Positions 780-58,474 of a stretch of DNA of 64,000 bases are shown here, piece after piece (the first letter of the stretch is position 1; each line of letters starts with the position of its first letter). The notes under the pieces were generated by a model, which worked only from the letters and a program-made list of their open reading frames with translations, was not told the DNA's origin and made no database searches. The DNA is taken from positions 5,977-69,976 of IMG/VR virus record IMGVR_UViG_3300031170_000001; one strand, written 5' to 3'. Both the position numbers and the translations under genes were made by a program. This DNA is from a virus. Lineage: Duplodnaviria > Caudoviricetes.

Positions 780-1694
780 CTATGCGCCCGGCGTGCCCCA
801 CACGGTGCGCCAGTTGGTCCAACCCGCATCCCAACGGGAAGTACACTTGTAGCGCATCGTATCGGTGGCGAAGTCGCCTTCCATGGACTTCTGCGCCATC
901 CTACGGGTGATGAACTGCAAGCCCATCTGTTCGTCGGTCTTGATGAACCATGCTGTGGCCGACAGGAGGCGGGTAATCACCTCGTAGCCGTCCGGCAGGG
1001 CCTTGGTCGATGCAATGGCGTTGATGGCGTTGCTGCCCACCGTGCCGGTCGTCAGGGCCGACTTGGTGACACGCTCGGCCTGCCACTCGTTTTCCGGCGA
1101 CACCAGCAACTTGCGCGGGGTGATGCGGACGAACTTGCGGTCGTTGTCCATCGACTTGCGAATTTGAGTCAGCATCGACTCAAGGCTGGTTTCCGACAAG
1201 GCGGCTGGGGTTGCCAGAAGATTGCTGCCAACACCGCCAATGATCGGGTGCGAAGCTGAGCAAAGCGGCTGTCCATCGCCACCCAGATAGGCTCCGTTGA
1301 AGGCCCGGTTGAGGACGTTGGCAGCAACCGTTTCCTCGGTTTCCGCCATGCCCTGACCCATCTGCTCGGAATAGATGCGGCCAATCGAGATGTGATCGCC
1401 GTCTTCCACCAGCACCTTGGTAAGGCCGAAAGCAATGCCGTACTGAAGGAAGGTATAGGTTTTGTTGAAGACCACGCCGCCGGACTTGTACGTTACCGGC
1501 CCGCCTTCACCCATCGCGGGTGCTGAGCCAAGGCCGTACATGACCGGCTCCATCTGGTAAGCCCGCTGGATACCGGGCTTGACGCGCATGAACGTGCGGT
1601 ACTCCTTGCGAAGTTCATACACGCCATCGAAATGTTCACTAAGGATCGGCTCGACCAGAATACGGAACTGGGCGCTATTCATCGGGGTAGGCAT
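780..1694 (-). CDS. Major capsid protein (HK97 fold, Mu gpT-like family)
   Basis: 304 aa; motifs GLGSAP..GEGGPVTY, YGIAFGLT..LVED, AANVLNRAF, GGDGQPLCSASHP, RYKCTSRWDAGWTNWR..WGTPGA. Confidence 0.9.
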   Translation of the reverse strand: MPTPMNSAQFRILVEPILSEHFDGVYELRKEYRTFMRVKPGIQRAYQMEPVMYGLGSAPAMGEGGPVTYKSGGVVFNKTYTFLQYGIAFGLTKVLVEDGDHISIGRIYSEQMGQGMAETEETVAANVLNRAFNGAYLGGDGQPLCSASHPIIGGVGSNLLATPAALSETSLESMLTQIRKSMDNDRKFVRITPRKLLVSPENEWQAERVTKSALTTGTVGSNAINAIASTKALPDGYEVITRLLSATAWFIKTDEQMGLQFITRRMAQKSMEGDFATDTMRYKCTSRWDAGWTNWRTVWGTPGA

Positions 1695-2647: not shown

Positions 2648-3331
2648 ATGCAATCAGGCTTTGCGGCTATCCTTCTTGCATTGATTAGCGGCACTGCGTT
2701 GGCGCAAGTAAATAACCCTAACACCAACGTCATCAACAACCCGCTGACCAACAATCCCGGCCCAGTCACCGCCAATACATCCGCGACACTGAGCGGCAGC
2801 AGCACCGTCACCAACCCCAGCGCCACCGGGGGCACAGGAGGCGCATCGGGCTCTTCCAGCGTGTCGGTGACAACGGGTGCTCAAACCACGACTTATCCGG
2901 CCAATCAAACCATAACCAGCGTGCCCTTCGTGTATGTGCCAGCGGTCAACACCGGAAATAGCTGTGCGCTGGGTGTCAGTGCCGGTGCCTCATGGCTGGG
3001 CGCAGGATTTGCCGTTGGTACGGCGTGGGAGAGCATGCAGTGCGAGCGGCGACAGGTGGCGGCGCTGCTGTGGAACATGGGCACGCCAGAAAGCCGGGCC
3101 GCCGCCAAGGAAGTGCTGTGCAATACGCCTGAGATACGCGACGCCTACAGGACCATTGGCCAGCCTTGCGCCAAGGATATGTCGAAGGTCGAAGGACCGG
3201 CCAAGTCCACCACCATCACCAAAGTAGCCTCGGTAGTGTTCGACCCCGGTGCCTACTCATCCGCTGCCGACTGCCTGACGGCAGCACATGCCCAAGGCGC
3301 TCCCCTGTCACTCTGCGGAGACAAAAAATGA
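2648..3331 (+). CDS. Exported phage protein with signal peptide and Cys-patterned C-terminal domain
   Basis: N-terminal signal peptide (ALISGTALAQ), low-complexity linker, SCALGVS...CERRQ...VLC pattern; ATGA overlap with the endolysin. Confidence 0.7.
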   Translation: MQSGFAAILLALISGTALAQVNNPNTNVINNPLTNNPGPVTANTSATLSGSSTVTNPSATGGTGGASGSSSVSVTTGAQTTTYPANQTITSVPFVYVPAVNTGNSCALGVSAGASWLGAGFAVGTAWESMQCERRQVAALLWNMGTPESRAAAKEVLCNTPEIRDAYRTIGQPCAKDMSKVEGPAKSTTITKVASVVFDPGAYSSAADCLTAAHAQGAPLSLCGDKK

Positions 3332-3765
3332 TCATCCACTTCACGCAGGCAGAATTTCTGTCAAGCGACACCGCTGACCTTCAAGGGATCAACAACTATC
3401 CAACTTGGGAAATTACCCGGAATCTTGAACGTCTGGCCCGTGTCATGGAGCTAATCCGCTCCGGTCTGGGCGATAAACCAGTGTCGATCCTGTCGGGCTA
3501 CCGCTGCCCCGAAGTCAATTCGGCAGTCGGCGGGGCCACCAACTCGGCCCACTTATACGGGCTTGCCTGTGACTTCATCATCCCAGACTTCGGCACGCCG
3601 CTCGATATCTGTCTGGCGATTGAGCCACACATGGGCTTTCTCCAGATTGACCAGTTAATCTGGGAGTTCTCGGATTGGGTCCATCTCGGGTTGGCAGTCG
3701 ATGGTGAGCCACGGCATGAGTGCCTCACCATCAACAACAGCGGCACATCTGTAGGCTTCGGCTAG
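3328..3765 (+). CDS. Endolysin, peptidase M15 family
   Basis: SGYRCPEVNSAVGGATNSAHLYGLACD and DQLIWEF..WVHLG zinc-peptidase motifs; ATG 3328. Confidence 0.9.
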   Translation: MIIHFTQAEFLSSDTADLQGINNYPTWEITRNLERLARVMELIRSGLGDKPVSILSGYRCPEVNSAVGGATNSAHLYGLACDFIIPDFGTPLDICLAIEPHMGFLQIDQLIWEFSDWVHLGLAVDGEPRHECLTINNSGTSVGFG

Positions 3766-4472
3766 GTTTCAAACTGCCGTGGCGGGCGGCGAAGGTCGCG
3801 CAACGTCTCCATGCCGGGGGCCATCCGGGTTGTGCCGCCCATGTCACGGACTTGTGCGCCTGCCGCCTCTAGCTGATCGTAGATACCGCGTTCCTGATCC
3901 ATCGGCTTATCATGGTGGTTTTCCCGCATGATCATGCGGATGCCTTCCTGATCGATTTCCATGGCAATCATCTCGCGCCACATCAGGCAGTCCTTGTAGA
4001 TGCTGGTAGCATCGATCACGGCATACTCGTCGGCGTGCCAGTTTTCCTTCTGGGCCTGCTCATATTTGAAAAACCAGTAACCCATCCGCATACGCCGATG
4101 CGGGGTATCGACGTTGTGCGTAGTCGATATCCAGCAACGGTGAAAGCCCTCTCGATGAGGCAACTTGGGCAGCACCGTGTCGTTCATAACCTCTTGCATG
4201 CGCTTGCGGCGCTCTGGATCGGTACGCTCGGCGGCGCGGTCCCATTCGTCGTTTGACCATGCCCCCCGGCTTCCCCCGCGTGCGGCTTCGACGCCCGTGT
4301 CGCGGTAAGCCAGACGGGCTTCTTCTTCGGCCACCAGACGGCGGGCATCGTCCAACCGTTCCTGACGTTCCATCGCCTCTTGCTTGCGGACTTCCGATTC
4401 CGCGACTTCCTCGGCAGTCGGCATGCTCAAATCGTTGCTGCTGGGAATACCGGGCTGGAGTGTCTTGGCCAT
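3762..4472 (-). CDS. Conserved phage head-region protein
   Basis: 236 aa; LPKLPHREGFHRCWISTT...RMRMGY motif; position between scaffold and capsid genes. Confidence 0.75.
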   Translation of the reverse strand: MAKTLQPGIPSSNDLSMPTAEEVAESEVRKQEAMERQERLDDARRLVAEEEARLAYRDTGVEAARGGSRGAWSNDEWDRAAERTDPERRKRMQEVMNDTVLPKLPHREGFHRCWISTTHNVDTPHRRMRMGYWFFKYEQAQKENWHADEYAVIDATSIYKDCLMWREMIAMEIDQEGIRMIMRENHHDKPMDQERGIYDQLEAAGAQVRDMGGTTRMAPGMETLRDLRRPPRQFET

Positions 4473-4482
4473 GGTCAGTCTC

Positions 4483-5658
4483 CTAATTCATGCCGCGTCG
4501 GCGCAGGGTTTCGGCTCCCTTGCGCCACTTGCCAACGATGCGGTCGCGCTTGGCAACGGATGCCTCGTCCAGATTTTCTTCCAGCAAACCCTCGTCGCGC
4601 AGGGCGTCACGCTGCCATTCGGACAGGGCATAACCGCCGCCATTGCCTCGGGTTGATCGTCCTGAGCCGGTTGGCGGACCAGCCCGCCTGACGGCAACGT
4701 CCTGTCCCAACAGGGGGCGACCACCGTTGCCCCCATTCAGACGACGACGGGCGGCATTACGATCTTCCGCCTCGTCAGTGTCCTGATCACCGCCCCTGTC
4801 GGGGTTCAGCCCATACTTCGACATACGACTCTCCATCGTCGTCCAGAATGCCTGCGTCTGGCGTTGATACCCTTGCGTCAGAAGCTCGGCATCGATGGCG
4901 CGCACGATGTTGCAGTCTGCATCGGGGCTTTCCGGGTCAAACCACGGGAAACGCTCCTGAAACCGCTCAAACTTCTCGTCCACCGCTTCCTTGATCGCCG
5001 GATCGATTTGTTGCTGTTGCGGCATGGAAGGTGGCAGAGGTTGAGCCTGCTGCGGCACCTGACCGCCTTCGGTCATCCGCACACGCTGCTGCTTGGTCCC
5101 CCACAGACGGGTAATCACCTCGTCACGGAGCTTGTTCACCTCGGCGTACTTGGCACCGTTGTTGGTCGCCACCGCATCGGCCAATTCCTGATCGGCCATG
5201 CGGAGCGCCTGTTCAAGATTGCCAATCTGGCCGTCCAGACTGTTGGCCGCCAACCCCACCTGACCGTAGGTGAGCCGCTGGACGACGCCGCCCAACTGCT
5301 GAATCTGGTTGGTTAGCTCCTCAATCCGCTGCTCTTGCAGGCGATTGTATTCGCGGTTACGGGCGTTGCGGCGGGCACGACGCGACTTGGATTCACGTTC
5401 TTCCGGCGGTCCTTCGCCTGAGTCTTCGTAGGCCAGTCGGGAGTCTTCTTGGTCGAACTCCTCGGCTGGTTTCTCACGACTTGTCGGTTTGTCGGACGTA
5501 ACGTCCCAATCGGCACTGTCCTCGCTGGGCGAGATTTCCAGATTGGCACCGTCAGTGTCGCCGCCAACCAGTGCTACGTCATCGCCAGCTTCCGCTTCGT
5601 CAGGCAGGGAAAATTCTTCGTGCTTCCCGCCGTCGCCGCGTCTTACGGGTACTGCCAT
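4483..5658 (-). CDS. Putative capsid scaffolding protein
   Basis: 391 aa; acidic N-terminus, long coiled coil, basic C-terminus; downstream of the portal. Confidence 0.65.
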   Translation of the reverse strand: MAVPVRRGDGGKHEEFSLPDEAEAGDDVALVGGDTDGANLEISPSEDSADWDVTSDKPTSREKPAEEFDQEDSRLAYEDSGEGPPEERESKSRRARRNARNREYNRLQEQRIEELTNQIQQLGGVVQRLTYGQVGLAANSLDGQIGNLEQALRMADQELADAVATNNGAKYAEVNKLRDEVITRLWGTKQQRVRMTEGGQVPQQAQPLPPSMPQQQQIDPAIKEAVDEKFERFQERFPWFDPESPDADCNIVRAIDAELLTQGYQRQTQAFWTTMESRMSKYGLNPDRGGDQDTDEAEDRNAARRRLNGGNGGRPLLGQDVAVRRAGPPTGSGRSTRGNGGGYALSEWQRDALRDEGLLEENLDEASVAKRDRIVGKWRKGAETLRRRGMN

Positions 5659-5667
5659 GGTAAGCCC

Positions 5668-6141
5668 CTAGATAAGTGTTTTGATGACCAACGGATCGCC
5701 GTAGATCACGCCAATCACGTCGGCATCGTTCATGGTCATAAACAACGCCTCACGATTCCATTCGTCCTTGAGCGCAACGGCAATACGGTCGCCGCCGTAT
5801 TGCGGGCAACGGATAAACTGACCGGGCACGCACCAATCGCCTTCGGGCCACGGCTCCATGGTCGCGCGGTTCTTGAAGGCTGCCGGTCCCAATGCGCGGA
5901 CCAAGGCCGTCTGTGTACGGAATTTCTCGGCATCGACCGATTCGTCGGGATACCAAAACTTGTTGCCATTGGCCAAAACCTTGAACGAGCCGGGGGTCCT
6001 AAGCTGGACCAGAATGCGGGTGCCTACCGGATGGTAAGGCGGGTCCACGTCCGGATAATTCATCTGATAGCTCTCGGTGTAGGCGTCTCCGAGAAGCTCC
6101 TTGACGGTGTTCACCACCGGAATGATTTTATCGCGCGGCAC
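5668..6141 (-). CDS. GroES/Cpn10-like co-chaperonin
   Basis: PVGTRILVQ...ALVRALGPAAF...WCVPGQFIRCPQYGG...MNDADVIGV matches the Cpn10 strand pattern. Confidence 0.8.
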   Translation of the reverse strand: MPRDKIIPVVNTVKELLGDAYTESYQMNYPDVDPPYHPVGTRILVQLRTPGSFKVLANGNKFWYPDESVDAEKFRTQTALVRALGPAAFKNRATMEPWPEGDWCVPGQFIRCPQYGGDRIAVALKDEWNREALFMTMNDADVIGVIYGDPLVIKTLI

Positions 6142-6347
6142 TAAAACTCCTTTTCTCGTTTATCCTGTTCTGCCGCTTCCGTCTCGACGTGCTGCTCAAG
6201 CTGCCGCTGCAACATCTCAAGGGCGAACAGCATCCCGTGCAACCGGCCAAACGCAAACTCGGTGCGGCGACCTTCATCGGGCAGGCGAAGCTCGTCATAG
6301 ACCAACTGCTGACGCATCTGGTCTATCAGAGCGAAAACATACTCCAC
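6141..6347 (-). CDS. Hypothetical protein
   Basis: 68 aa ORF coupled to its neighbours. Confidence 0.65.
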   Translation of the reverse strand: MEYVFALIDQMRQQLVYDELRLPDEGRRTEFAFGRLHGMLFALEMLQRQLEQHVETEAAEQDKREKEF

Positions 6348-6350
6348 GCG

Positions 6351-6479
6351 CTAGTTGCGCTTGGTCGTCGGAGCCGGGGCCGTCGCCTTGGTCTGGGCTT
6401 CCTTGACACCCTGTCCCGAAGCCAGATTGACTTTCAATCTCGTCGGTCCCGGCGGTAGCGGTACTTTCTTCTCAGCCAT
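6351..6479 (-). CDS. Small basic hypothetical protein (42 aa)
   Basis: Hand-translated MAEKKVPLPPGPTRLKVNLASGQG...; GGAG RBS. Confidence 0.5.
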   Translation of the reverse strand: MAEKKVPLPPGPTRLKVNLASGQGVKEAQTKATAPAPTTKRN

Positions 6480-6481
6480 GA

Positions 6482-6643
6482 TTATCTCCGTGCGCCACGT
6501 TTGATGATCTTGCCGCCCTTGGCTTTCTTGCGCGCCGTATTGAGCGCAATGGCAACGGCCTGTTTCTGAGGCTTGCCCGCCGCCATCTCTGTCTTGATGT
6601 TCCGGCTGACGGTTTCTTTGCTTGAGCCTTTTAGCAGCGGCAT
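6482..6643 (-). CDS. Small basic phage protein (MPLxKG...GKPQKQAVAIAL type)
   Basis: Hand-translated 53 aa MPLLKGSSKETVSRNIKTEMAAGKPQKQAVAIALNTARKKAKGG...; RBS present. Confidence 0.75.
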   Translation of the reverse strand: MPLLKGSSKETVSRNIKTEMAAGKPQKQAVAIALNTARKKAKGGKIIKRGARR

Positions 6644-6668
6644 TATTTGCTCCCTCGTTATATTGGCG

Positions 6669-6911
6669 TCAACGACGCTTCGTCGGTCCTCCCCGACAAA
6701 ATGCCGGATCGTCGTGGTGACGGGGCATCGGGGCGCAGCCGTGCGTGGTGCCGCCCTTGCTGAAGGCGCGCGCCGGAATGGCCGTATCGAGCATGGCAGT
6801 CGGGTTCATGCCCTGCTTCTCGCCGCTGGGCAGTCGCATCGAGGCCGGTGCTGTCATCTTGGGCGGTCGGCCCAATCGGGTGAAGATGTTACGATTTCTT
6901 GCCACTGGCAC
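6669..6911 (-). CDS. Small basic hypothetical protein
   Basis: 80 aa; overlaps the portal stop; contains FSKGG. Confidence 0.5.
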   Translation of the reverse strand: MPVARNRNIFTRLGRPPKMTAPASMRLPSGEKQGMNPTAMLDTAIPARAFSKGGTTHGCAPMPRHHDDPAFCRGGPTKRR

Positions 6912-9621
6912 CTCCTGTCGGCTTGGGCTTCAGCTTGGCTGCCTGAATGGTCGCCTGATTGCGCGCATCCGCTATAGACTCAGCCGATTCATGACCCATT
7001 GAAGCGATGCTTTGACTTGATTGATGACCCGCCGCAGCAATACTTTCAGACGATTCATGCCCAGCCCCGGCAATGGTTAGCTGAGTATTATCGCGGTTTT
7101 CCGCGATAGTCTCGCGCGAAACACGGTCTTCCTCGGAATGATGGTCCGTCTGCTGCATTTTCTGGGCTTCCAGCATCAGCTTCAACTGACCCATCCGCTC
7201 ATCGATATCCTGCTGGCGACGCTCGATTTCGGCGTTTGTATTGGTTTGATGGGCCTTCAAGGCGGCGTCCTGCTTGGACTTTTCCATGCGCGAACGAATG
7301 TCGATGACCTTGGCCTGTGTGTCGGCCTTGTCCTTCTCGCGCTGCCGTTGCACGTCGTCCTGAGCCACCATACTGGGGTCCATGGGGACCGGCGGGGCCA
7401 GCTTCTTCAGCAAGTCCTTGGCCTCCATGATGATCTCGGGAACGTCGCCCATCTCCTCCTTGGCAAGCTCAAACACCTGATCGTCCAACTCGTCCATCAT
7501 GCGGTCGAGCGGAACCTCGGTGCCAGTGGCCATGAATGAATCCAGCGTAATGTCAGGATTTTTTGTCTGGATACGTAGCGCCTGAGTGGCCGCTTCAAGC
7601 ATGGCATCGGAATACCACATCGCAACGTGTTCACCGATATGGTTGATGATGACAGGGATGAACTTCTCTGCCAGTGCCGGATTGGAGCCAAAGATCGGGT
7701 CTTCAAGATATTTCTTGTGCATCTTGATATGGGCTTCGTGGTCCTGACCGGGAAACGCCTTGAGCGGTCCGCCACTGGACGCCGTGACATTCTCCGCCAC
7801 CGCATTGAGTTGCTTCGGGATCGGATTGGGCACTAGGAACTGATCGGGGTTCGTCACCCCGTACTGGCGCAGGAAATTCGCCTCGGTGGCGCGCACGTTG
7901 TAAATCGGGATTTGCGCTTGGTGCATCATCTGGGCACGCTGGGCGATGGTCTGGGCCATCGCCTTGCGCTGCAAGTCCGAGAAGATGCGCGGATCGCTGA
8001 CCGGGATGACGACCATCGGACCCTTGAAGTCCTCCGGGTTGACCGTCAGTTCGCCGTGCTGATCGATGATGGTCTGCGGTGTGAGCGTGTCGCCGTTCAC
8101 TTGATAGAGCCACTTCAGGAACAGCCGCATCGAACGATGGAGCCGTCCATGCACGGCCCCAAAGTTCTTCAAACCCTGTTCGATGAACATCTGGGCCGTA
8201 CCAACGGGCGTCTGCGCGTTGATTTTGTCGTATTCATCGAAAGTGGTCCGGACCACGCCCCGCCCTGCATCGACAAGAAAACCCAGAAGTTGGAATAGGA
8301 CGGGGGAAGGCTCATTGAATTTGAACGGCATGAACGTCTTGCGGATGTCGTCCTGTGCCAGCGATCCTTGGATTTCGGTAATCTCGGTGACTCTGGGCGT
8401 GATGTTCTGAGCACCGGCCGTCGAACCACCCTTCAGGCGCGCGCCTGTCTGGGTGGTGTTAAGCATGGCCGAATCCAAAAGGGCGCGCAGCGTGCCGGTC
8501 GCAGCACCGCTAAGCGAGCCAATGATGTGGGTCATGCCCACCGGATAGCCGCCACGCCACGGCCAAAACGGCCATTCGATCAGGAAGATGAGCCGTTGCT
8601 TGGTGTTGTCGTCCTCGCGCCAGTTGCGATAGATCGACAGTATCTTGCGGGCTTCCACGTCGATGGTGACGAGGTAGGGCTCCAGCACACCGTCGTCGTC
8701 GTCCAGCAACGACATGACGACCGAAGTCTCGTAGACCGGACGGATGCCGTCGAGGTTCTGGCTCGGTGTCTTGCGGCCTATGATGCGGTCATTGGCCTGT
8801 TCCGAATCAGTCTCGTCGGGGATTTGGGTGCCCGTTTGCGTAGAAACGTCGATGGCCGCGATCCAGAGTCCCTTAGCGACATTAGCGCGATACGTCCATT
8901 TATCGATATTTTGGGCGTGAGTGATACGGACTTGGGAATAGAAGTCGCCATCGTTCCAAGGCCGATACACCAAGTCGATGGGAACGAACGAAACCGCAGG
9001 AGTGCCGTTATCTTCATACCCTTTGGTGTAGAACGCGCCTCCCAGAGGGCATTGGGTGAAACCCACCTCGAATTCATGGTAAGCACTGCTCATCTGTTCG
9101 GTCATTTGCCAGTTCATGTAGCGGGTGACGCGCTTGGCCCGCTCATTCTTCTGGTCGTTCTCATCTCCTACTATGGCAGCTTTGACAGGTCCATCGGGCG
9201 GCAGCATCTCGTTCATCACGCCGCCGCCAAAGTCGATGGCGGCTTCCAGCAGCAACGGATGGACGGCACGACTGGCACCGGGGAAGTTGGCACCGCCCAC
9301 GTTGTTGGAGCCCATGCCGGTGCGATTGAGCCCTTCCTCATACTGCTTGTCACGGTCCTCCCGGCTCTCCTTGTCCATGTCGATGGCTTCAAGAAGATCG
9401 AAGCAGATTTCATCGAGCCTAGTCTGATCGAGGGTCGCCGCCAGATTGTCGAAGTGGCTGACTTGCGCCGGGCCGGGGGCGGCACTGGGCGGGATCACCG
9501 TGGCCTGCCCGTCGTCGCCAATGATCACCTGATTGCCCATCGGACGAACGTCGGTCAGGCGCGATGGCCCACCCCTGCCGGGCTGGGCGAACGGATCGAA
9601 TCCGGCTGATTGATCGGTCAC
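6889..9621 (-). CDS. Portal protein
   Basis: 910 aa; ASRAVHPLLLEAAIDF, GPVKAAI, MNWQMTE, LIFLIEWPFWPWRGGYPVGM, TPVGT motifs of P22/T7-like portals; coiled-coil tail. Confidence 0.85.
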   Translation of the reverse strand: MTDQSAGFDPFAQPGRGGPSRLTDVRPMGNQVIIGDDGQATVIPPSAAPGPAQVSHFDNLAATLDQTRLDEICFDLLEAIDMDKESREDRDKQYEEGLNRTGMGSNNVGGANFPGASRAVHPLLLEAAIDFGGGVMNEMLPPDGPVKAAIVGDENDQKNERAKRVTRYMNWQMTEQMSSAYHEFEVGFTQCPLGGAFYTKGYEDNGTPAVSFVPIDLVYRPWNDGDFYSQVRITHAQNIDKWTYRANVAKGLWIAAIDVSTQTGTQIPDETDSEQANDRIIGRKTPSQNLDGIRPVYETSVVMSLLDDDDGVLEPYLVTIDVEARKILSIYRNWREDDNTKQRLIFLIEWPFWPWRGGYPVGMTHIIGSLSGAATGTLRALLDSAMLNTTQTGARLKGGSTAGAQNITPRVTEITEIQGSLAQDDIRKTFMPFKFNEPSPVLFQLLGFLVDAGRGVVRTTFDEYDKINAQTPVGTAQMFIEQGLKNFGAVHGRLHRSMRLFLKWLYQVNGDTLTPQTIIDQHGELTVNPEDFKGPMVVIPVSDPRIFSDLQRKAMAQTIAQRAQMMHQAQIPIYNVRATEANFLRQYGVTNPDQFLVPNPIPKQLNAVAENVTASSGGPLKAFPGQDHEAHIKMHKKYLEDPIFGSNPALAEKFIPVIINHIGEHVAMWYSDAMLEAATQALRIQTKNPDITLDSFMATGTEVPLDRMMDELDDQVFELAKEEMGDVPEIIMEAKDLLKKLAPPVPMDPSMVAQDDVQRQREKDKADTQAKVIDIRSRMEKSKQDAALKAHQTNTNAEIERRQQDIDERMGQLKLMLEAQKMQQTDHHSEEDRVSRETIAENRDNTQLTIAGAGHESSESIAAAGHQSSQSIASMGHESAESIADARNQATIQAAKLKPKPTGGASGKKS

Positions 9622-12302
9622 TTATAGGCCCCCATGAGGCTCTGAGCCTCGGCAATGGCGTCATACGGATCGCCCACCTGACCGCCTTCGGCCCGGTTCT
9701 TCATCATGTCGATCAGGTCGGAGTGCGTGGTCGGGATGCCGCTGGTCGAATCCCAGATCGTGTGATGGGCAAGGTGCTGGTAGAACGGGTCGTACTGCGG
9801 CGGTGCGGCAAAGCTCAACGCGCGCTGGCGGTCGGCAAGGCGCTGCACCGCTTCCTCACCGCCGCCGACACGGCGCATGGCGTTCTCGGCCAGCTTCGGA
9901 TCGATGGCGTGCATGTTAATCTGCCGGGCGTCCAGCGTGGGCCGTCCGCCGTAGCCAATCAGCGAGCCGAAAAAGCCCTTCTTGGCGGCATCGATGCCCT
10001 CGTAGGCATCGGTAACGTCGGCCCATTCGGACGGATGACTCATACCCCTGCGGGCGCGGTCCACTTGCTCGGCAATCTTGGCCTCGGTGCCGGGAACGAT
10101 CTTGGGGGCCGCCGTCATCTGACGACCAAGAAGATTCTGGAAGCCGAAGGGGGTCATGTTCTGCACGGCATCGGCAATCGCCTCGGGATGGGCCTCGCCC
10201 TCCGAAGCGTATTGCAGATACTTCTGGCCCTGCTTGCCGCCCAACCAATCGGCATAGGCCCCTTCGGGCCGGATCATCCGGTCGGGTGACGACAACCTGA
10301 TGCCGGGCAACGCCTCGCGGCCAATCGCCTGCCGCTGCATGCTCGACAAGGTAGTGAGGTAAGCCTTGAGCGCGTCGCGGGTGTCCAAGCCTTCCAGCGA
10401 CACCTTCTTGGAGAAATCGCGCATGAAGTCGCCGTAGTTCAGGACATGCTCGGGCATCTCACGCGGCAGCTTCTTGGCGATGCCACCCAGCGGGTGCCAC
10501 GGCCAATCCTCGATCTTGGTGGTCGCCGCATCCTTGTAGCGCCGCAGGGTGCGGGCGATTTCCGCTACCTTGCTGCCGGTCTGGTAGCCGGGGACGGAGC
10601 CGCCGCTTGCGTAGCCAAACGCCTTTAGCTCGGTGTCGGGAACCTCAACCACCTGACTGTGATACTGGCCGGGTGTCGCGCGCATCCAGATAGGCGGGTC
10701 CTGATTGACGCTCTTGGACCACGACGCGAAGGACGGCACCCCGGTCGTGTCGGCAATACGCTGGGCGTTGGTCGAAGCGATGTCGGGGGCATGAACCCGG
10801 TTCTTGTTGACCATCGCCCGCACGTCTGAGAACGGCAGGCCACCGAAGGTCTGTGTCTCGATGTAGGGGATGTCCGCCGCCCGGTTGAGCCTGCCTGCCG
10901 TGCGCGGCTCATTGGCTTCAAACGGCCTGCCACCGCCCCGGTTTACGTTATTGTAATCCGGGTCCAGCACTTTTTTCATCCACTGATCAAGATCGGCATT
11001 CTGTTTAGTGTCGTTCTCGAAAAACTTATAAGGCCCCCTCGTCCCGATGTTCTGATTCAAGGAATCATCGAGAAAGAACGTCGAACGCGCTTTGACCGAA
11101 GGATCAAGCACCGCGCCCCACTTGCCGTAGCTGGACGATCCGAGATTGCTCAAATCCGCGATGTGCCCGTAGATCGGGCGAAGGTGCATCGGGCTGTCTT
11201 CGGGGATGCCCCACAACGCATGTTCCGTCGCCCGACGATAGCGCGGCGACAGGGTGCCTTCGCTGGTCCCCGTCTCAAATTGGCTTTTGAACCGTCCGTC
11301 GTTGCGGATGCGCGCCCACACGTTGTCCGGCGCGGCGACGGTGATGGGGCGCTTGAAGATGTCGGCAATCGCCGTGGCGTAGTCCTGCATCGCCTGAAGG
11401 CCGCCGACAAGGGCACCGCCCTTGCCGCCGCCATGCTGGAAATGCTCAATCTGACCGCCCTCGGCCTTGAAGATCGGGTTGCCTATCTTATCGACGTACT
11501 TTTGAAATTCCGGCCAGAGATCGCCTATCGGCAGATCATGGCCCCGCACCAAGGTTCCCTTCGGGTCCATGAACAGGGGAGCCGCCTCGGCCAATTTGTT
11601 GGCCAGCAAGCCATGCGCCATGTTGCCGTAGGCTTCGGACTGTTGCTCGGGGCTCAATTTCTTCAGCCACGGCTTGGCAAAATCCTGAAAATCCACGCTA
11701 AAAGTCGTGGCCCCCATCGGCCACTTTCCGGTCGCCTGATCCTTGTAGAGATTCATCTTATACTTTGCGTCGGCGTCCTTGATTTTCCGCAGCGTCTCAT
11801 ATGTGTCGGCATACTTGCCGTATTCCAGCGGCGGCATCAGCGACACGAGATTGGGGTCCTTGGCCCCGGCGATCCACATATTCTCACGGGCATACTTGTC
11901 GGGGGCGACGTAGGTCCCCTGCTTCTTCAAATCCGTGACGTAATAATCCTTGGCCCAATTGGCGAGATCGCCCTGCGACGGCACGACCGTACTTCGCATC
12001 GGATGAGCATGGGCCGAATAGATCGGCTCGCCCTGCGCCGCCATCCGCTGGTTCCACTGCTGATGACCGGAGGGCCATTCAACGCTTCGCGGGCCACCCG
12101 TATTGCTCAGCGTGTTCGACAGATCGGCCGGGCCACCCGTGGGGCCGATGATCAGCTTCTCGTTGCCTGTATCGAGCATGTGCTGGCGCACGTTCCTGAC
12201 CGCCGCCTGCTCGGCAGGCGTGCCGTGGCCCAGCAGGCCCTTGATCCATTGAATCTTGTCAACCATGGCAATTGACGCCTGTTTGGAGGCAATTGCCCCC
12301 AA
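9618..12302 (-). CDS. Polyvalent protein: JAB/JAMM-like + DUF3626-like + HhH glycosylase-like modules
   Basis: 894 aa (start may be ATG 12266); E48..HAHP-x7-SQGD; FKSQFETGTS..RPIYG..YG..RSTF..DS..YIETQ; GIDAAKKGFF..PTLDARQ; modules joined by AxGG linkers. Confidence 0.7.
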   Translation of the reverse strand: MGAIASKQASIAMVDKIQWIKGLLGHGTPAEQAAVRNVRQHMLDTGNEKLIIGPTGGPADLSNTLSNTGGPRSVEWPSGHQQWNQRMAAQGEPIYSAHAHPMRSTVVPSQGDLANWAKDYYVTDLKKQGTYVAPDKYARENMWIAGAKDPNLVSLMPPLEYGKYADTYETLRKIKDADAKYKMNLYKDQATGKWPMGATTFSVDFQDFAKPWLKKLSPEQQSEAYGNMAHGLLANKLAEAAPLFMDPKGTLVRGHDLPIGDLWPEFQKYVDKIGNPIFKAEGGQIEHFQHGGGKGGALVGGLQAMQDYATAIADIFKRPITVAAPDNVWARIRNDGRFKSQFETGTSEGTLSPRYRRATEHALWGIPEDSPMHLRPIYGHIADLSNLGSSSYGKWGAVLDPSVKARSTFFLDDSLNQNIGTRGPYKFFENDTKQNADLDQWMKKVLDPDYNNVNRGGGRPFEANEPRTAGRLNRAADIPYIETQTFGGLPFSDVRAMVNKNRVHAPDIASTNAQRIADTTGVPSFASWSKSVNQDPPIWMRATPGQYHSQVVEVPDTELKAFGYASGGSVPGYQTGSKVAEIARTLRRYKDAATTKIEDWPWHPLGGIAKKLPREMPEHVLNYGDFMRDFSKKVSLEGLDTRDALKAYLTTLSSMQRQAIGREALPGIRLSSPDRMIRPEGAYADWLGGKQGQKYLQYASEGEAHPEAIADAVQNMTPFGFQNLLGRQMTAAPKIVPGTEAKIAEQVDRARRGMSHPSEWADVTDAYEGIDAAKKGFFGSLIGYGGRPTLDARQINMHAIDPKLAENAMRRVGGGEEAVQRLADRQRALSFAAPPQYDPFYQHLAHHTIWDSTSGIPTTHSDLIDMMKNRAEGGQVGDPYDAIAEAQSLMGAYK

Positions 12303-12304
12303 TC

Positions 12305-12535
12305 CTAGCCGGGATCAGGCTCTTTAGCCACCAAATCGGGGGGCGGGTCGCTAATCAACGCCTCGGCCATCTCCGCCAACTGGCCGTCGATCTTTGCGTC
12401 GTTCTCGGCCCCGATGCTCTCGACCAAGCTCTGTGGCGTGGCCGCCAGCGCCCGGTGCTTGTGTTCGTAGTGCCGAAGCCTGCGGGCGCACTGCACCAGA
12501 CAAGTCTTGATCCGCAGTTGGTCTTCCTCAGTCAT
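12305..12535 (-). CDS. Hypothetical protein
   Basis: 76 aa ORF overlapping the terminase end. Confidence 0.6.
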   Translation of the reverse strand: MTEEDQLRIKTCLVQCARRLRHYEHKHRALAATPQSLVESIGAENDAKIDGQLAEMAEALISDPPPDLVAKEPDPG

Positions 12536-14096
12536 AGGGTGCCCTTACGGTCTTGGGTTTCTCGCGGCCCGTCTCCACGTCGTACTGGTACTCAAACTCA
12601 GGGGTGTTCGCAGGCGGCGGCGGCGGGGTGAAAGTGCCGTCGTCATTGACCTTTCCCAGCTTGTGGAAGACGCCATCGGCCACGAACCTATCGGCAAACA
12701 CCCGCCACGCCTGAGAGCATGAATCGACCCAATCATCGTGCGGGGTGGTGCCGGGGCCAGAATACACACAAAGCTGCTTCAGCACAGGCTCAACCCAGTC
12801 CTTCGGCTTGCCGGGGCGCTTGTCGCTCTCGGGCAGCCAGATGCGGCCGTGCCGGGCGATGTGGCTGACCGCGTGGAGCCTGCTGATCTTGTCGGCCCGG
12901 CCGGGATTGTAGGGGTAGGAATCGATGCCGTGCTGGCTCAAAACCTGTCGCAGGGAGATGCCTGAGCCCTTGTCCTCGATGATCAGCAGGTCGGGGTGCT
13001 TGGTCTGCTCCTGAAAATACTTCTGCCCGGCCAAGGTTTCCTGAAGCATCTCCTGCCTGCGACCGTAGAGCGCCTTCATCTCGCCCTTGGCCTTGTCGAG
13101 CAAGTCGGGGAAGCCCAGCCATTCCTCCCAGCATTCCAAGAGGTAGAGATGCCATTGGCGCTTGTGCTGAAACGCCCCCCACACCGTGCAGGCCGTGGGA
13201 TCGGATGAGAAGGTCTTGCGGTCGTAGGTCTTTTCGGTGAAGGCGGTGTCCATCGACACCATGATGTATTCCAGCCAAGGCAGCGGCTCGGACTTGGGCC
13301 AGATTTTCAGCCAGCTACGCTTGATGATGGCGCTTTCGCTGATATCCAGAAGCTCGCCGTGAAGCTCCTGACGGCCGATGTTGGTGCCTTCGTACTGGCG
13401 CAAGTCTTCAAAGAAATTTTCCGCGAGATTCGCCCGATTCTCATAAGTTGAGCCACGGATGAGCCTTGTCTCGGGCGTGCCGTCGCGCTTTTTCTTGTCG
13501 ATCATGTCGGCAAGGAACTGCAACGGCTTGGGCGTGGTGGTGTAGAATTTCTGCGGCTGGACGAGGCTGCCATCGGGCAGGCGGTAGGCAATACGAGTGC
13601 TGAAGTTGATGTTGTAGAGGGCTTCCTCGGCCTTGTACCAAGCGGCAAGCTCGTCGCCCCACACGAACGTACACTGCGGGCCGCGCAATCGGTCGGGGGT
13701 TTCGGACGAGAACCCCCGGATGATTGAGCCGTTCCACAGCGTCATTTCCGGATAAGGGGAATAAGTCAGGCTTTGGATGCAGTCGGCCGGGATGACCGCG
13801 CGCAAACCCGCCGGGCCTTCAAACACCGTGCCTCTCAGATCGGAGTAGGTCGGGGCGACGACGTGAATCACCACGCCGGGATACAGTCCGGCCTGCCGTC
13901 GCACCCAGCTTGCGCCCGTCTTGGTCTTGCCCCAGCCACGACCGGCCATCGCCAGACTGTTAAGCCAGCCTTCCAAGGGAAGTATCTGCTTGGGCCGCCC
14001 GCCGATGTTGGGCTCGCCGGAATGCCACTGCCGCTCGGCCTCCAAGAACGCCATGTCGGCGTGGGAAGCAGAGTCGAGCGTGGCCAGTTCAGGCAT
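12528..14096 (-). CDS. terL: Terminase large subunit
   Basis: Walker A AGRGWGKT, LRGPQ..WGDELAAW, TTTPKP, GSTYEN, nuclease motifs SMDTA and HDDWVDS. Confidence 0.95.
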   Translation of the reverse strand: MPELATLDSASHADMAFLEAERQWHSGEPNIGGRPKQILPLEGWLNSLAMAGRGWGKTKTGASWVRRQAGLYPGVVIHVVAPTYSDLRGTVFEGPAGLRAVIPADCIQSLTYSPYPEMTLWNGSIIRGFSSETPDRLRGPQCTFVWGDELAAWYKAEEALYNINFSTRIAYRLPDGSLVQPQKFYTTTPKPLQFLADMIDKKKRDGTPETRLIRGSTYENRANLAENFFEDLRQYEGTNIGRQELHGELLDISESAIIKRSWLKIWPKSEPLPWLEYIMVSMDTAFTEKTYDRKTFSSDPTACTVWGAFQHKRQWHLYLLECWEEWLGFPDLLDKAKGEMKALYGRRQEMLQETLAGQKYFQEQTKHPDLLIIEDKGSGISLRQVLSQHGIDSYPYNPGRADKISRLHAVSHIARHGRIWLPESDKRPGKPKDWVEPVLKQLCVYSGPGTTPHDDWVDSCSQAWRVFADRFVADGVFHKLGKVNDDGTFTPPPPPANTPEFEYQYDVETGREKPKTVRAPYD

Positions 14097-14219: not shown

Positions 14220-14504
14220 CTAGCTGGTAATGCCCTTGACCGCCCACATCACGGCTTCCTCGATCTTGGTCTTGGCGATGCTCATCTCGCGGCTGGGACC
14301 CAGCGCATCACACAGTTCGTGGAACGCCAGCCCGATATCCTTGATCGACTTCATATCCGCCATGTCCTTGGGCGTCATTTCCTTGTACTTGTGGCGCATG
14401 ACGTTTTCGCTGGTCGGTGAATTGGCTTCGCTGGTCACGGGAATCCTCGTCAGTTCAGTCGGCGTAGATACTGGCCAATCGTCTTCTCTGTCACTTTCCG
14501 CCAT
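14220..14504 (-). CDS. Acb2/Tad1-like helical hairpin protein (candidate immune-signal sponge)
   Basis: RHKYKEMT..DMADMKSIKDIG...SREMSIAKTKIEEAVMWAVKGIT; start ATG 14504 or GTG 14438. Confidence 0.65.
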   Translation of the reverse strand: MAESDREDDWPVSTPTELTRIPVTSEANSPTSENVMRHKYKEMTPKDMADMKSIKDIGLAFHELCDALGPSREMSIAKTKIEEAVMWAVKGITS

Positions 14505-15315
14505 CTTCCCGTGCCTCCTTCGCTTCCCGCCGCAGTCGCCGCTTGGTCCCGGTGCTGCCGAAGACAGGCGTGCCGAACAGAGTCGGCATCTTGTCGCCTT
14601 GGACCGGGGTGAACAGGTCGTACTTCGACAGTGCCTCGGTGATGCGCTGCCGGGCGGTGGCAAAGTAATCCGGGTTGCGCTCAATGCCAATGAACTTGCG
14701 GCCCAACTCCAAGGCAGCGACGCCGGTAGAGCCTGACCCCATGAAGGGGTCCAAGATCACGTCGCCGGGGTTGGTGAACAGCCTGACCAATTCCTTCATC
14801 AGCGAAATCGGCTTCTCGGTGGGATGGATGACCTTGTGGGGCCGGGCATGGATGAACACGCCAACCTTGCCGCCGCCGTTCCATTTCGGCCTGCCGGGGC
14901 CTGACCAATACGCCTGTATCATTTCATGGCCCTTGCCCGGCCCGTCGCCCTGAAGATTGGGCTTGGCGTTGGGCTTCAGCCAGATCATCGGCCGATAGAA
15001 CCTAGTGCCGTGGCCATACAAGGTGTCCATGTGGCTGCGCCACTGGGCGATGCCCTCGTCCTGACAGAAGATCAGGCTCCAGCCCTTGAGCCGTTCGCGC
15101 ACGAACGATCCGAGAAGATCCATGTCGAGATCGGTCAGGGCCATGAAAGGTATCGGCACGGCGTCAATCTCGCCATCGGCCTTCCTGCCAATGCGGTCCT
15201 TGTGATGCACGTCCGCGCCATAAGGCGGATCGGTGATCACCGCGTTCACGTCGCCCAGCCGGTCGTAAAGGTCTTGATTGTCGCCCTTTATCAGCCACGC
15301 GCGTTCGTTCATCAT
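14491..15315 (-). CDS. DNA N6-adenine/N4-cytosine methyltransferase (beta class)
   Basis: DPPY, HPTEKP, VILDPFMGSGSTG, FIGIE motifs; ATGA overlap at 15315. Confidence 0.92.
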   Translation of the reverse strand: MMNERAWLIKGDNQDLYDRLGDVNAVITDPPYGADVHHKDRIGRKADGEIDAVPIPFMALTDLDMDLLGSFVRERLKGWSLIFCQDEGIAQWRSHMDTLYGHGTRFYRPMIWLKPNAKPNLQGDGPGKGHEMIQAYWSGPGRPKWNGGGKVGVFIHARPHKVIHPTEKPISLMKELVRLFTNPGDVILDPFMGSGSTGVAALELGRKFIGIERNPDYFATARQRITEALSKYDLFTPVQGDKMPTLFGTPVFGSTGTKRRLRREAKEAREDGGK

Positions 15316-15533
15316 GCTCGTACTTTCTGACTTTTCAATTGCTTGAGGGGCGAGAACTTGTTGAGCTTGCCCCACTTCCTGAAGGGGCACTCGATGCGAT
15401 GGTCCAAGGCGTGATCACACGCCTGATCGCAGACTTCGCAGATGAAGCTGGTGCGTATGTGTGGCGGCGGTCCGGGGCTGGCCATCTCGCGATTGAAATC
15501 ATCAAGCCAGCAACGCCTGCAACTACATTCCAT
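15312..15533 (-). CDS. Small Cys-rich (zinc-binding) protein
   Basis: CSCRRC...CEVC..C.H...H..C pattern. Confidence 0.55.
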   Translation of the reverse strand: MECSCRRCWLDDFNREMASPGPPPHIRTSFICEVCDQACDHALDHRIECPFRKWGKLNKFSPLKQLKSQKVRA

Positions 15534-53633: not shown

Positions 53634-54542
53634 CTAGGCCCCCAACAGGCTACGCAGATAGCGGACGCGACCGCCTTCCGCTTTTTTCTCGGCCGGGGGA
53701 CGACCAACGACCGCTATGTAGTTTTGCGTCTCAGGAGGCAAAAACTCCGCATAATGTCGTCCCGTTTCCTTGGCCTTCTCCAGAGCCCTCTGTACGTTTC
53801 CCGGCCCTGCGTTGTAGGCCGCCGCTGCCAAGATCGGATCGCCAAACGTCTTCAGTTGCGCCTCGTAGTAGGCTTTTCCAAGCGCAAGATTGTAGTCGCG
53901 CGCCTCCGCATCCTTGGCCGGATCGCCAGTCGGGCCGCGATTGAATAGCTCAGGGTTCCATGGCAGTCCCGCCAGCTTGGCGGCTTCCGGAGCCGTGCCC
54001 GGCATGATCTGGGCGATGCCCAGCGCGCCAGCAGGCGACGTGATGATCTTGCCGTTGCTGAAGTGCGTCCCGCCGCTTTCCTGTTTGATCATGTTGCCGA
54101 AGATGCCTTCGGCAGTGCCGGTCAACGTGGTGCCTGAGCCCTTTGCCGCATTGGGATTGGCCGCCACGGCAGCCGCCATCTTCTTGCGTTCTTCCGCCAT
54201 GGCCTGAAGCTGGGCGTCGATGGCGCTCATCCGCTGATTGAAGTCGCCCTTGTCCTCTTTCTGGGACTCCGGGTTGATGATGCCCGCGATGCTCTTGCCG
54301 ATATCGCTAATCTCATGGCTGGCTTCGGTCGGCATCTTCAGCATTTCCGGCTGCGGGATGTCCATGCGCGGCGGCGGCGGCGATTGCAGCATGGTCGATG
54401 GACCGACAGGACGGGCTTCCGGTATGGCAACGGACTTGCCGAACACGCTGGAAGGCGCACGCGCGGCGGCGCGCATCGCGGCAACAGGAACCCCCGCCTC
54501 GCTGGTCGGTGCTTGGTCGAAGAAGTTGCCCCAGCTTTCCAT
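53634..54542 (-). CDS. Virion-associated lytic transglycosylase (SLT domain)
   Basis: QESGG, GALGIAQIMPGT, AAAYNAGPGNV, ETQNY motifs. Confidence 0.9.
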   Translation of the reverse strand: MESWGNFFDQAPTSEAGVPVAAMRAAARAPSSVFGKSVAIPEARPVGPSTMLQSPPPPRMDIPQPEMLKMPTEASHEISDIGKSIAGIINPESQKEDKGDFNQRMSAIDAQLQAMAEERKKMAAAVAANPNAAKGSGTTLTGTAEGIFGNMIKQESGGTHFSNGKIITSPAGALGIAQIMPGTAPEAAKLAGLPWNPELFNRGPTGDPAKDAEARDYNLALGKAYYEAQLKTFGDPILAAAAYNAGPGNVQRALEKAKETGRHYAEFLPPETQNYIAVVGRPPAEKKAEGGRVRYLRSLLGA

Positions 54543-56905: not shown

Positions 56906-58474
56906 CTAATCCCATTCCGGACCAAGATGAACGGCTCCACCGCCCTTGTACTGGCCGCCTTCGGCATGGGCTGGTGCAGCATCACCGTGTTTCTTCTTCA
57001 TGTATTCTTGCCATGAGATGCGTGCCGGGTTGGGCACCACCATGCCGTTATCGGTGAAGCCTGCGCGTCCTTCATCCGAACGGGCATACTCGGCCCACGC
57101 ATCATCGGCACCCATAGTCGTCTTGTAGTGACTGAAGTAGGTATTGATGAATTTGCGCTTCTCGATCTGGTCTTTCAAAATCTGGCTACGAACAGCCAAT
57201 AGATTCCTGTTGGCGTCTTCCAAGCCACCAATCCGGGGCACGGCTTTCTCAAACAACTCGCGCTCAAAGTTGGAGATAGCGCCCTGTCCCTGCGGCACAC
57301 CATGAATCTGGTTCTTGGTGAAGATGGCTTCGATTTCGTCGTGCGCCGCTTGCGGATAACGCGCATGGGGGAAGACCCCCGCCGTACGACCAGTGATGCC
57401 GGGGTATTTCTTCATAATCTCGGTAGCCCGCTCGATGCCGCGAAGCTCTGCAAGGTTCTTGTCCTGCTCGACTTGATTGTCCTTGGTTTCCTTCTCGTAG
57501 TTGGCCCGCTCTATCTTGTAGGCAGCCATCGCGTCGGTCGGGCTGGTAAGGCCGTCGTAGGTGTAGCCGGTCGGCTTGGGAGGCAACCCCAGCGACTTGG
57601 CCTTGTCGATATCTTCCGGCTTGTCGCCCGGCACCTTGAAACCGCCCTTGGGCGCGGAATCAAAGATGGCGCGATTTTGCTCGACAAACTTCTTGATGCT
57701 TTCCTCGGGCACCTTGAGCGAACGCGCAGTCCCTTCATAGAAGCTGAGAAGTGCCGCCTGTCTTGCTTCCGGTGTCGCAAAGTGGCCTTCACCCATAACC
57801 TTGATTTGAGCCAAGGCCCTTTCCATGGCGTGATTGTTGGCCTTTTCTTCCAGCGCCGCCGCGTTGTCCGCCGCCTTCTGCCCAACCTTGTCGGTCTGTC
57901 CCACCGTCTTGATAAGGCCCGATTCGATGGCGCGAATGGTCGATTCGTCGCCCACTTGCAGTGCGCGCAGATAGGCCAGCTTGTCCTGTAGCGGGGCCTG
58001 TTCGATGCCTGCCCGCTTCATCGCCATCGTCGCCAGCTTGTACTGATAGTCTTCCTCGTCGCTGCGGTCCTTCTGGATCGCCGGAACCATCTGTTTGATG
58101 CCCGCACCAAGCTGCGAACCAAAATCCCCGGTTCCGCTCAACATGCCCGCACCCAGCGCCATCAACGGCAGATTGGAACGGCCTTCACGGCTGCGCTTCA
58201 ACGACGCCGTAGTGTCGTCCAACAGCTTGCTCATCGTATCGACGGTTAGCTGCTGCTTGCTGAAGACGTTATCGACTTCCTTGGTGCGGTTGGCCATCGA
58301 CGCTTCATGCTTGGCCAGAAACTCCAATCCCATGGCCTTTGCGGCTTCGGGATTGGTCATCGGCGCTTCGATCACGGGCGGCGCAGGCGCAGGCGCTACC
58401 GCAGGCGCAACGGTCCCACCATCGTCATAGCCCGGCGGGGGATTGCCGAAGGGAGAGGGACCGTTGCCAGCCAT
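56906..58474 (-). CDS. Putative DNA ejection/internal virion protein
   Basis: 522 aa coiled coil; GAISNFERELF motif; YDDGG and AEGG motifs near the ends. Confidence 0.65.
   Translation of the reverse strand: MAGNGPSPFGNPPPGYDDGGTVAPAVAPAPAPPVIEAPMTNPEAAKAMGLEFLAKHEASMANRTKEVDNVFSKQQLTVDTMSKLLDDTTASLKRSREGRSNLPLMALGAGMLSGTGDFGSQLGAGIKQMVPAIQKDRSDEEDYQYKLATMAMKRAGIEQAPLQDKLAYLRALQVGDESTIRAIESGLIKTVGQTDKVGQKAADNAAALEEKANNHAMERALAQIKVMGEGHFATPEARQAALLSFYEGTARSLKVPEESIKKFVEQNRAIFDSAPKGGFKVPGDKPEDIDKAKSLGLPPKPTGYTYDGLTSPTDAMAAYKIERANYEKETKDNQVEQDKNLAELRGIERATEIMKKYPGITGRTAGVFPHARYPQAAHDEIEAIFTKNQIHGVPQGQGAISNFERELFEKAVPRIGGLEDANRNLLAVRSQILKDQIEKRKFINTYFSHYKTTMGADDAWAEYARSDEGRAGFTDNGMVVPNPARISWQEYMKKKHGDAAPAHAEGGQYKGGGAVHLGPEWD

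Follow-up and report, generated by a model that had tools for sequence, protein, structure and literature searches.

A predicted three-enzyme polyvalent protein with exchangeable, AxGG-bounded modules in the head gene region of a phage

Introduction

What is encoded between the terminase and portal genes of the phage represented by IMG/VR record IMGVR_UViG_3300031170_000001, and what might the product do? The record is a 69,976 bp virus rated complete by CheckV, and the 64,000 bp stretch analysed here (the window) corresponds to its bases 5977-69976. The minus strand of the window contains a long gene (9618-12302) which an earlier note, made by reading the sequence, had taken for a three-enzyme polyvalent protein with modules separated by AxGG linkers. 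Polyvalent proteins are thought to be a main route by which phages bring in counter-defence and takeover enzymes, and few of their domains have been identified.

We consider it probable that the gene, an accessory one in a podovirus-like phage, encodes a polyvalent effector in which three catalytically intact, linker-bounded enzymes are delivered from the capsid. One polypeptide would join a JAMM/JAB zinc isopeptidase, an ADP-ribosyltransferase (ART) of the SopF family and an HhH-GPD glycosylase-like enzyme, with AxGG linkers acting as the cassette borders for module exchange between related phages. The protein would be built into the capsid during assembly and enter the host together with the DNA, after which the ART and the glycosylase-like module may act on host macromolecules; the JAB module would either free the modules by cutting past the linker Gly-Gly or strip host ubiquitin-like (Ubl) conjugates. 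Virion packaging, injection and the proposed targets we infer from gene position and analogy, and substrates and proteolytic processing are likewise predicted.

The gene and its three modules

The open reading frame (ORF) is real. A database copy of the protein begins at M13, 12 codons after the TTG at 12302, and a homologue with 65% identity (P0005) starts at the methionine equivalent to M13; judged from these sequences, the ATG at 12266 is more likely to be the start than the TTG. Module borders were set by BLAST and home-made hidden Markov models (HMMs), which placed module 1 (M1) at approximately residues 13-279, module 2 (M2) at 302-564 and module 3 (M3) at 579-870. Each of these modules recurs separately in other proteins. 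An NCBIfam scan of the polyvalent protein gave no match; profile or structure searches placed every one of the three modules in a fold or family. The motifs that the earlier note had quoted were found where it had put them, and as their residues are invariant in all three modules across 11-18 diverged homologues, they are not chance occurrences. By HMMs, Pfam and folds, the polypeptide combines two or more unrelated enzymatic domains, and its relatives show variable architectures and hallmark polyvalent domains, as is expected of a polyvalent protein.

Module 3 has the fold of HhH-GPD glycosylases

M3 carries the motifs GIDAAKKGFFGSLIGYGGRPTLDARQ (K774, D791) and QHLAHHTIWD (842-851) at nt ~9983-9750, and alignment of 18 sequences revealed 52 invariant columns. 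An AlphaFold2 (AF2) model of the module (predicted local distance difference test, pLDDT, 79; core >90) was compared with solved structures by VIA. This revealed 24 consecutive rows of the HhH-GPD superfamily, namely the Ogg2-type 8-oxoguanine glycosylase Tm1821 (3n0u_A; Z 16.4, root-mean-square deviation 2.9 Å, 203/209 residues) and the next 23, with EndoIII, the queuine-salvage DUF2419, MagIII, OGG1, MIG, Mag1, NTHL1, AGOG, ROS1, AlkA, MutY and MBD4 among the rows. Foldseek on the same model concurred with the HhH-GPD fold, and the top two rows of an Atlas shape search were EndoIII/HhH-GPD clusters. An ESM Atlas feature search returned weak viral clusters (0.79-0.82), some of them DUF7178, which serve as a lead only.

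The helix-hairpin-helix (HhH) element of M3 lies at residues 757-781 and consists of a helix (757-764), the hairpin G769-I-x and a second helix (772-781) that carries K774. It is followed by a Gly/Pro loop (G783, G785, P788), after which D791 caps the N-terminus of a further helix. K774, G783, G785, P788 and D791 are all invariant in the 18 sequences, and the fold together with this Lys/Asp pair bears out the earlier comparison of the module with OGG/EndoIII-like enzymes. The further invariant motifs QHLxHHxxWD (842-851) and THxD (859-862) probably line the substrate pocket. On the modelled structure, M3 is a new family in the HhH-GPD superfamily, filed there by fold because sequence-level matches in Pfam and the Protein Data Bank (PDB) are lacking. 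As the HhH lysine and the catalytic aspartate are retained, M3 most likely cleaves an N-glycosidic bond, either of DNA or of a nucleotide, and may have lyase activity as well; nucleotide substrates are possible besides DNA because the module is close to the queuine-salvage enzyme.

Module 1 is a JAB/MPN domain with a complete zinc site

M1 contains the full JAMM set E48 ... H98-x-H100 ... S109-x-x-D112 (nt 12161-11967). An HMMER scan over 1.84 billion representatives yielded 15 relatives, and in the alignment of 13 sequences E48, H98, H100, S109 and D112 are invariant; the spacing from the second His to the Ser is 8 residues in this protein compared to 7 in most relatives. The Foldseek top list for the AF2 model (pLDDT 79) was mostly JAMM/MPN (BRCC36, Rpn11, AMSH/Sst2, Cap3, BubCD and RadC), and an exhaustive VIA search gave JAMM/MPN structures in all of its first 16 rows (Z 4.2-6.2), of which PfJAMM1 was the best (6.2). 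Since the match list is homogeneous and the zinc site complete, M1 was accepted as a JAB domain to which a helical subdomain has been added. The JAMM-type assignment made in the earlier note therefore holds, and by its model M1 is a domain of the JAB/MPN fold.

Among relatives, the Pfam Prok-JAB profile (PF14464) scored 25.0 bits on P0005, which equals the cut-off, and 20.8 bits on P0028. The number of JAB copies per protein varies, with two in P0005 and four in P0026, a metagenomic protein of 2437 aa in which the M1-like modules stand in tandem. Each P0026 copy has the E and the HxH with a longer insert before SxxD, and is bounded by [YF][AQ]xGGPVKM.

Module 2 belongs to the DUF3626 family

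M2 contains the DUF3626 motifs GRFKSQFETGTS (R337), RPIYG (Y378), YG (Y392), RSTF (R406) and YIETQ (E482) at nt ~11294-10859. With Pfam DUF3626 (PF12294), for which the cut-off is 27 bits, it scored 29 bits and its relatives 29-42 bits, P0005 scoring 42. DUF3626 also made up 26/30 of the nearest ESM Atlas clusters, and the sole PHROGs match, phrog_8314 (function not known), covered the DUF3626 part. A search of the PDB with the M2 profile gave a single match, 7dn8_C, which was recognised as SopF because its sequence agrees with the SopF mutagenesis primers printed in PMC11937434. SopF of Salmonella contains DUF3626 (PMC6682159) and acts as an ADP-ribosyltransferase; its E325 contacts the N-ribose of NAD+, and Y224/Y240 bind the nicotinamide (PMC11937434). 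In the M2/7dn8_C alignment (offset 69), Y378, Y392 and E482 fell on SopF Y224, Y240 and E325, and these three residues are invariant in 11 relatives. As they align with the NAD-binding residues of SopF, the predicted NAD site of M2 is Tyr-Tyr-Glu and not the R-S-E-like triad of the earlier note. That triad was dropped; the assignment to DUF3626 stood. Within the effector reading as a whole, the most probable identity of M2, as read from sequence, is a SopF-family NAD+-dependent ADP-ribosyltransferase.

AxGG linkers are the borders of exchanged cassettes

The AxGG motifs at residues 280, 565 and 871 mark the exact module ends, as the note had proposed. Three such motifs compare with 0.87 expected in this protein (p 0.06), which is not significant by count alone; A280/G282/G283 and G873/G874 are invariant alignment columns in relatives. 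The consensus [YF]-A-x-G-G-x-V, often followed by P-G-Y, was found at most HMM-defined module borders in ~35 relatives, and for most of them it was ~2 to 17x commoner than in shuffles.

The same motif was found in a second large protein of this phage, the ejection-protein-like P0064, a low-complexity protein with a Peptidase_S74 domain at residues 1117-1165. Six copies of [FLY]AxGG(xVPGY) lie between residues 588 and 1023, compared to 0.72 expected (~8-fold), and 0/5000 shuffles reached six. The motif is not enriched in the proteins of Caulobacter phage RW. In the complete genome MW202675.1 (L001), M3 and YAxGG motifs occur in three large virion-region proteins; the 3233-7992 section encodes a 'peptidase M15' (739 aa) and a hypothetical protein (847 aa), and the M3-bearing protein, annotated 'type I restriction enzyme', comes after these two. 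Both the 739-aa and the 847-aa proteins carry YAxGG.

Alignment of the window with a related contig (L006) demonstrated at the DNA level that whole modules are exchanged between related phages at the AxGG linkers, a check that the earlier note had suggested. The two sequences are collinear at 76% DNA identity from the gene for the terminase large subunit (TerL) to nt 10589, seven codons past ASGG. The following section of the window (9693-10588) is unrelated to its L006 counterpart of 1112 bp, and homology returns at 84% from nt 9692, the first base of AEGG codon 871, and continues into the portal gene. L006 carries a second, diverged JAB where the window has M3. The domain identities of the earlier interpretation are retained, with Tyr-Tyr-Glu in place of its M2 triad.

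The 24-residue tail after the final AEGG is ~83% identical between the window and L006 and is also present in P0040. Its sequence, DPYDxIAEAxxLMGAYK (9621-9680 in the window, and the C-termini of P0005 and P0040), is kept whatever module precedes it. More distant relatives have another conserved C-terminal tail, ...TLDEFLSKQGY. The tail is a candidate docking peptide for the capsid or portal.

Relatives and accessory status

M3 was found in at least ~45 protein clusters at 90% identity (20 long, 24 short). In the long proteins M3 may be N-terminal, in the middle or C-terminal, and is accompanied by ART-PolyVal, LPD23, a DUF6782 metallopeptidase, PcfJ or DUF6973; many long M3 proteins are without any known domain. 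Stand-alone M3 proteins of 310 aa are encoded by an unrelated phage lineage (17 contigs; for example L008 8001-8933 and L009 4312-5244). In L008 and L009 the gene is flanked by the portal gene (phrog_12082, E 4e-163) on one side and the major head protein gene on the other, and the stand-alone proteins retain the AxGG motif and a short tail. DUF3626 also occurs in other phage proteins: it is fused to Phage_Mu_F in P0025, a DUF3626 gene comes after the portal gene in phage DSL-LC01, and in phage SP-15 it is part of a protein annotated as similar to the TP901-1 ORF33 C-terminus.

Three other contigs (L005, L006 and that of P0006) keep the gene order TerL, polyvalent protein, portal-like protein and capsid, and have differing module sets. 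In Caulobacter phage RW (L010, MK929790.1) the portal homologue is 39% identical, TerL is split by an S-adenosylmethionine-dependent methyltransferase gene and the TerL-portal interval contains a tRNA-Val gene only (5328-5401); no match to the polyvalent protein (P0001) was found in the RW genome. As RW is among the closest cultured relatives and lacks the gene, the polyvalent gene is accessory.

Competing readings of the protein

Two of the readings differ in what the JAB module acts on. Where the earlier note had thought of host conjugates, the module may instead act on the GG linkers of its own polypeptide. The packaged protein would then be a polyprotein: JAMM would cut after the Gly-Gly of [YF]AxGG here and in P0064, and after delivery the ART, the glycosylase-like enzyme and a C-terminal anchoring tail would be released, much as eukaryotic viral polyproteins are cut at xGG by deubiquitinase-like proteases, with the GG linkers doubling as exchange sites. 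JAMM enzymes cleave after a C-terminal Gly-Gly or Gly. The solved structures nearest M1 include ubiquitin and Ubl isopeptidases, several of them with a ubiquitin, Ubl or CD-NTase substrate; an invariant A-x-G-G closes every module; several relatives terminate 2-3 residues past the GG, as Ubl precursors do; stand-alone M3 proteins keep the motif and a short tail; and the motif is enriched in P0064 of the same phage, not in the JAB-lacking RW. We nevertheless regard this self-cleavage as doubtful. MW202675.1 has M3 and the motifs but no M1-type JAB in a whole-genome search with the M1 alignment, and L005, the P0016 contig, also lacks one in the part sampled; the absence of Prok-JAB from MW202675.1 is uninformative because that profile misses the JAB of the window phage too. 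In P0037 and P0038 the N-terminal tandem motifs stand 12-18 residues apart, so that cleavage would yield pointless tiny peptides, and they resemble a docking repeat. The AEGG tail in the M1 model is disordered and not in the active site. A complex prediction of the JAB module with a 61-residue M2/M3 junction peptide scored 0.01, which weighs neither way on cleavage. Autoproteolytic release of polyvalent proteins has been predicted, but via MPTase domains (Iyer et al. 2017, PMC5512222).

It is possible, and we hold it tentatively, that the JAB module is a counter-defence deconjugase like Cap3 or BilB, which would strip Ubl conjugates from host targets such as primed CD-NTases of CBASS or virion proteins tagged by Bil/Bub systems; the linkers would in that case serve only for flexibility and as places of recombination. 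Cap3 bound to CD-NTase (9ild), BubCD (9ea4/9ea5) and a complex of a bacterial Ubl-deubiquitinase (8tyy) are among its structural neighbours, its catalytic motif is intact, and the duplication and divergence of JAB inside single proteins is more in keeping with an arsenal of effectors than with a housekeeping protease. The Bil system tags virion proteins with a Ubl, and expression with the late structural genes would put the JAB where this takes place. No host Ubl system can be named for the window phage, however, and the Z-scores, which all lie between 4.5 and 6.2, fail to split Cap3/BilB-like enzymes from archaeal or proteasomal JAMMs. A literature search found no counter-defence role described for a phage JAB.

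The same modules could also serve inside the producing cell, as an unpackaged late cytoplasmic multi-enzyme for the maturation of phage DNA or virions, in which M3 might, for example, repair phage DNA by base excision or edit it ahead of packaging, while the ART would regulate a protein of the phage or the host. Repair is the classical role of HhH-GPD enzymes, a DNA methylase gene adjoins TerL and the protein has no recognised capsid-targeting domain. We judge this unlikely, as relatives of the modules occur in polyvalent architectures with ART-PolyVal, LPD23 or MuF, unrelated phages have a stand-alone M3 gene embedded between those for portal and capsid, and the C-terminal tail is kept whichever module comes last. 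That the protein is essential to head structure or morphogenesis, as an analogue of MuF with degenerate enzyme-like domains, is very improbable despite its position between TerL and the portal and its translational coupling to the latter. All catalytic residues are invariant, the module content is wholly different between related phages, and this reading was rejected on the absence of the gene from RW, whose portal is 39% identical.

Several results weigh against the delivered three-enzyme effector that we prefer. The polyvalent protein has no MuF, portal or known capsid-targeting domain in a Pfam scan. The AF2 models of M1 and M3 rest on shallow alignments of 13-18 sequences. M3 has no Pfam match in this protein at E up to 1, PF00730 included, and the 13 M3-bearing relatives gave no Pfam HhH-GPD match at E 0.01-0.05. 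Neither single-sequence nor profile searches matched M3 to a PDB sequence; the weak rows for myosin-IXb, herpes polymerase and OXA-1 were rejected as chance matches. K774 lies three residues after the hairpin Gly, compared to two in EndoIII and OGG1. For M1, the structural Z-scores are modest (≤6.2), Pfam Prok-JAB misses this protein, also in a scan of its own genome, and PDB sequence searches (single-sequence and profile) gave no match. The DUF3626 match of M2 covers only part of the 301-position profile (21-126), its alignment to SopF is weak (E 0.14), and M2 is placed by its sequence.

Comparison with known systems

Like the polyvalent proteins previously described (PMC5512222), this protein has several unrelated effector domains in one polypeptide, variable architectures and a virion gene neighbourhood, and relatives of its modules are fused to ART-PolyVal, LPD23, the DUF6782 metallopeptidase and PcfJ. 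The text of that study (Iyer, Burroughs, Anand, de Souza and Aravind 2017, PMC5512222) contains no glycosylase, DUF3626 or linker motif, and covers JAB solely as the RadC clade, predicted to act on nucleic acids. The set described here differs in its isopeptidase-like JAB, SopF-type ART, new HhH-GPD family and conserved AxGG separators. Our literature search found no prior account of a glycosylase domain in polyvalent proteins. The polyvalent theme is known; what is new is the domain set, a large unannotated HhH-GPD family in head modules, and an AxGG grammar with a demonstrated swap.

Taken singly, each module both resembles and departs from its known counterparts. In common with JAB/JAMM isopeptidases (PfJAMM1 5ld9, Cap3 9ild, 8tyy, BubCD 9ea4), M1 has an MPN fold and every residue of the E...HxH...SxxD zinc site; it differs in ~150 extra residues (the helical subdomain), the 8-residue His-Ser gap, its polyvalent context and the lack of a recognised Ubl partner gene. 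M2 is of the same Pfam family as SopF (PDB 7dn8), with invariant residues aligned to its NAD-binding ones. The sequence similarity is very low, however, no membrane-targeting or ARF-binding parts were identified in the phage M2, and its target cannot be the eukaryotic V-ATPase. M3 shares with Tm1821 Ogg2 (3n0u) and other HhH-GPD enzymes the two-lobed all-helical fold, the HhH, the Gly/Pro loop, the invariant Asp and the Lys on the second HhH helix. At ~10% identity, it differs from them in an extra ~40-residue N-terminal region bearing invariant Trp residues, in the QHLxHHxxWD/THxD motif, which is absent from those enzymes as compared by name only, and in being found here solely in phage virion-gene contexts. 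The protein also resembles head-packaged ARTs and MuF-toxin fusions (T4 Alt; PMC9503650) in that an ART is encoded among terminase, portal and capsid genes and is presumed to be injected, and a DUF3626-MuF fusion exists (P0025). It has no MuF itself, belongs to another ART family and has two more enzymes attached.

As the M3 family seems to be restricted to virion-gene modules of phages, base-excision chemistry may be something that phages deliver into the host. The DUF3626 match links SopF, a T3SS effector that Salmonella directs at human cells, to a phage head-associated ART family and hints at the origin of such effectors. With AxGG at module borders and exchange points, and a GG-type protease fold in the same polypeptide, the predicted autoproteolytic release is directly testable; if true, it would be the bacterial-virus counterpart of the deubiquitinase-like, GG-specific polyprotein proteases of eukaryotic viruses.

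The locus and its neighbouring genes

The features are listed in Table 1. On the minus strand the genes run in the order methylase, TerL, 76-aa ORF, polyvalent gene, 910-aa portal-like gene, small genes and capsid, and a 90-aa ORF occupies the slot of the 76-aa ORF in L006. The 910-aa protein is 28-39% identical to proteins in 18 phage records, several of these proteins having portal or head-to-tail connector as their annotation; Caulobacter phages GB2A, RW, RLK and KcrB come closest, and phages of Roseobacter and Pelagibacter come next. By these sequence comparisons, the phages of Caulobacter, Roseobacter and Pelagibacter are the kin of this phage. The TerL domains and the portal annotation of the 910-aa homologues confirm that the gene lies between terminase and portal. 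The portal-like gene starts with a GTG that overlaps the polyvalent stop codon, the two genes sharing 4 nt (AAGTGA, 9618-9621), and as the same overlap is kept in L006 (5003-5006), the two genes are suggested to be translationally coupled. The polyvalent gene is part of the head-morphogenesis operon.

Table 1. Position of the polyvalent protein gene, its parts and other features in the window
Feature	Position (bp)	Strand	Description and basis
Polyvalent protein gene	9618..12302	-	894 aa from TTG 12302; 882 aa from ATG 12266
Module 1, predicted JAB/MPN+ metallopeptidase domain with helical C-terminal subdomain	11466..12266	-	Residues 13-279; model and alignment
Linker 1	11400..11465	-	Residues 280-301; AEGG, then Gly-rich stretch; A280, G282, G283 invariant
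Module 2, DUF3626, putative SopF-family ADP-ribosyltransferase	10611..11399	-	Residues 302-564; Pfam and alignment
Linker 2	10569..10610	-	Residues 565-578; ASGGSVPGYQTGSK; left edge of swapped cassette
Module 3, predicted HhH-GPD-superfamily (DNA-glycosylase fold) domain	9693..10568	-	Residues 579-870; AF2 model and alignment
Linker 3 and C-terminal tail	9621..9692	-	AEGG 871-874; tail DPYDxIAEAxxLMGAYK
N6/N4 DNA methyltransferase	14491..15390	-	Pfam N6_N4_Mtase, 108 bits; directly upstream of TerL
Terminase large subunit (TerL)	12528..14096	-	Terminase_6N/6C; upstream neighbour
76-aa ORF	12305..12535	-	TerL/polyvalent interval; function not assigned
Portal-like protein, 910 aa	6889..9621	-	Homology to annotated portal proteins
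Mu gpT-like major capsid protein	780..1694	-	Separated from the portal-like gene by small genes
Ejection-protein-like virion protein (P0064), 1388 aa	58474..62640	-	PHROG 'DNA ejection protein' / 'virion structural protein'

Two further minus-strand genes were seen among the large tail and ejection genes of the window. One (53634-54542) encodes a protein with an SLT lytic transglycosylase domain; the other (56906-58474) encodes a 522-aa protein with a weak match to a head-maturation-protease PHROG (E 8e-4).

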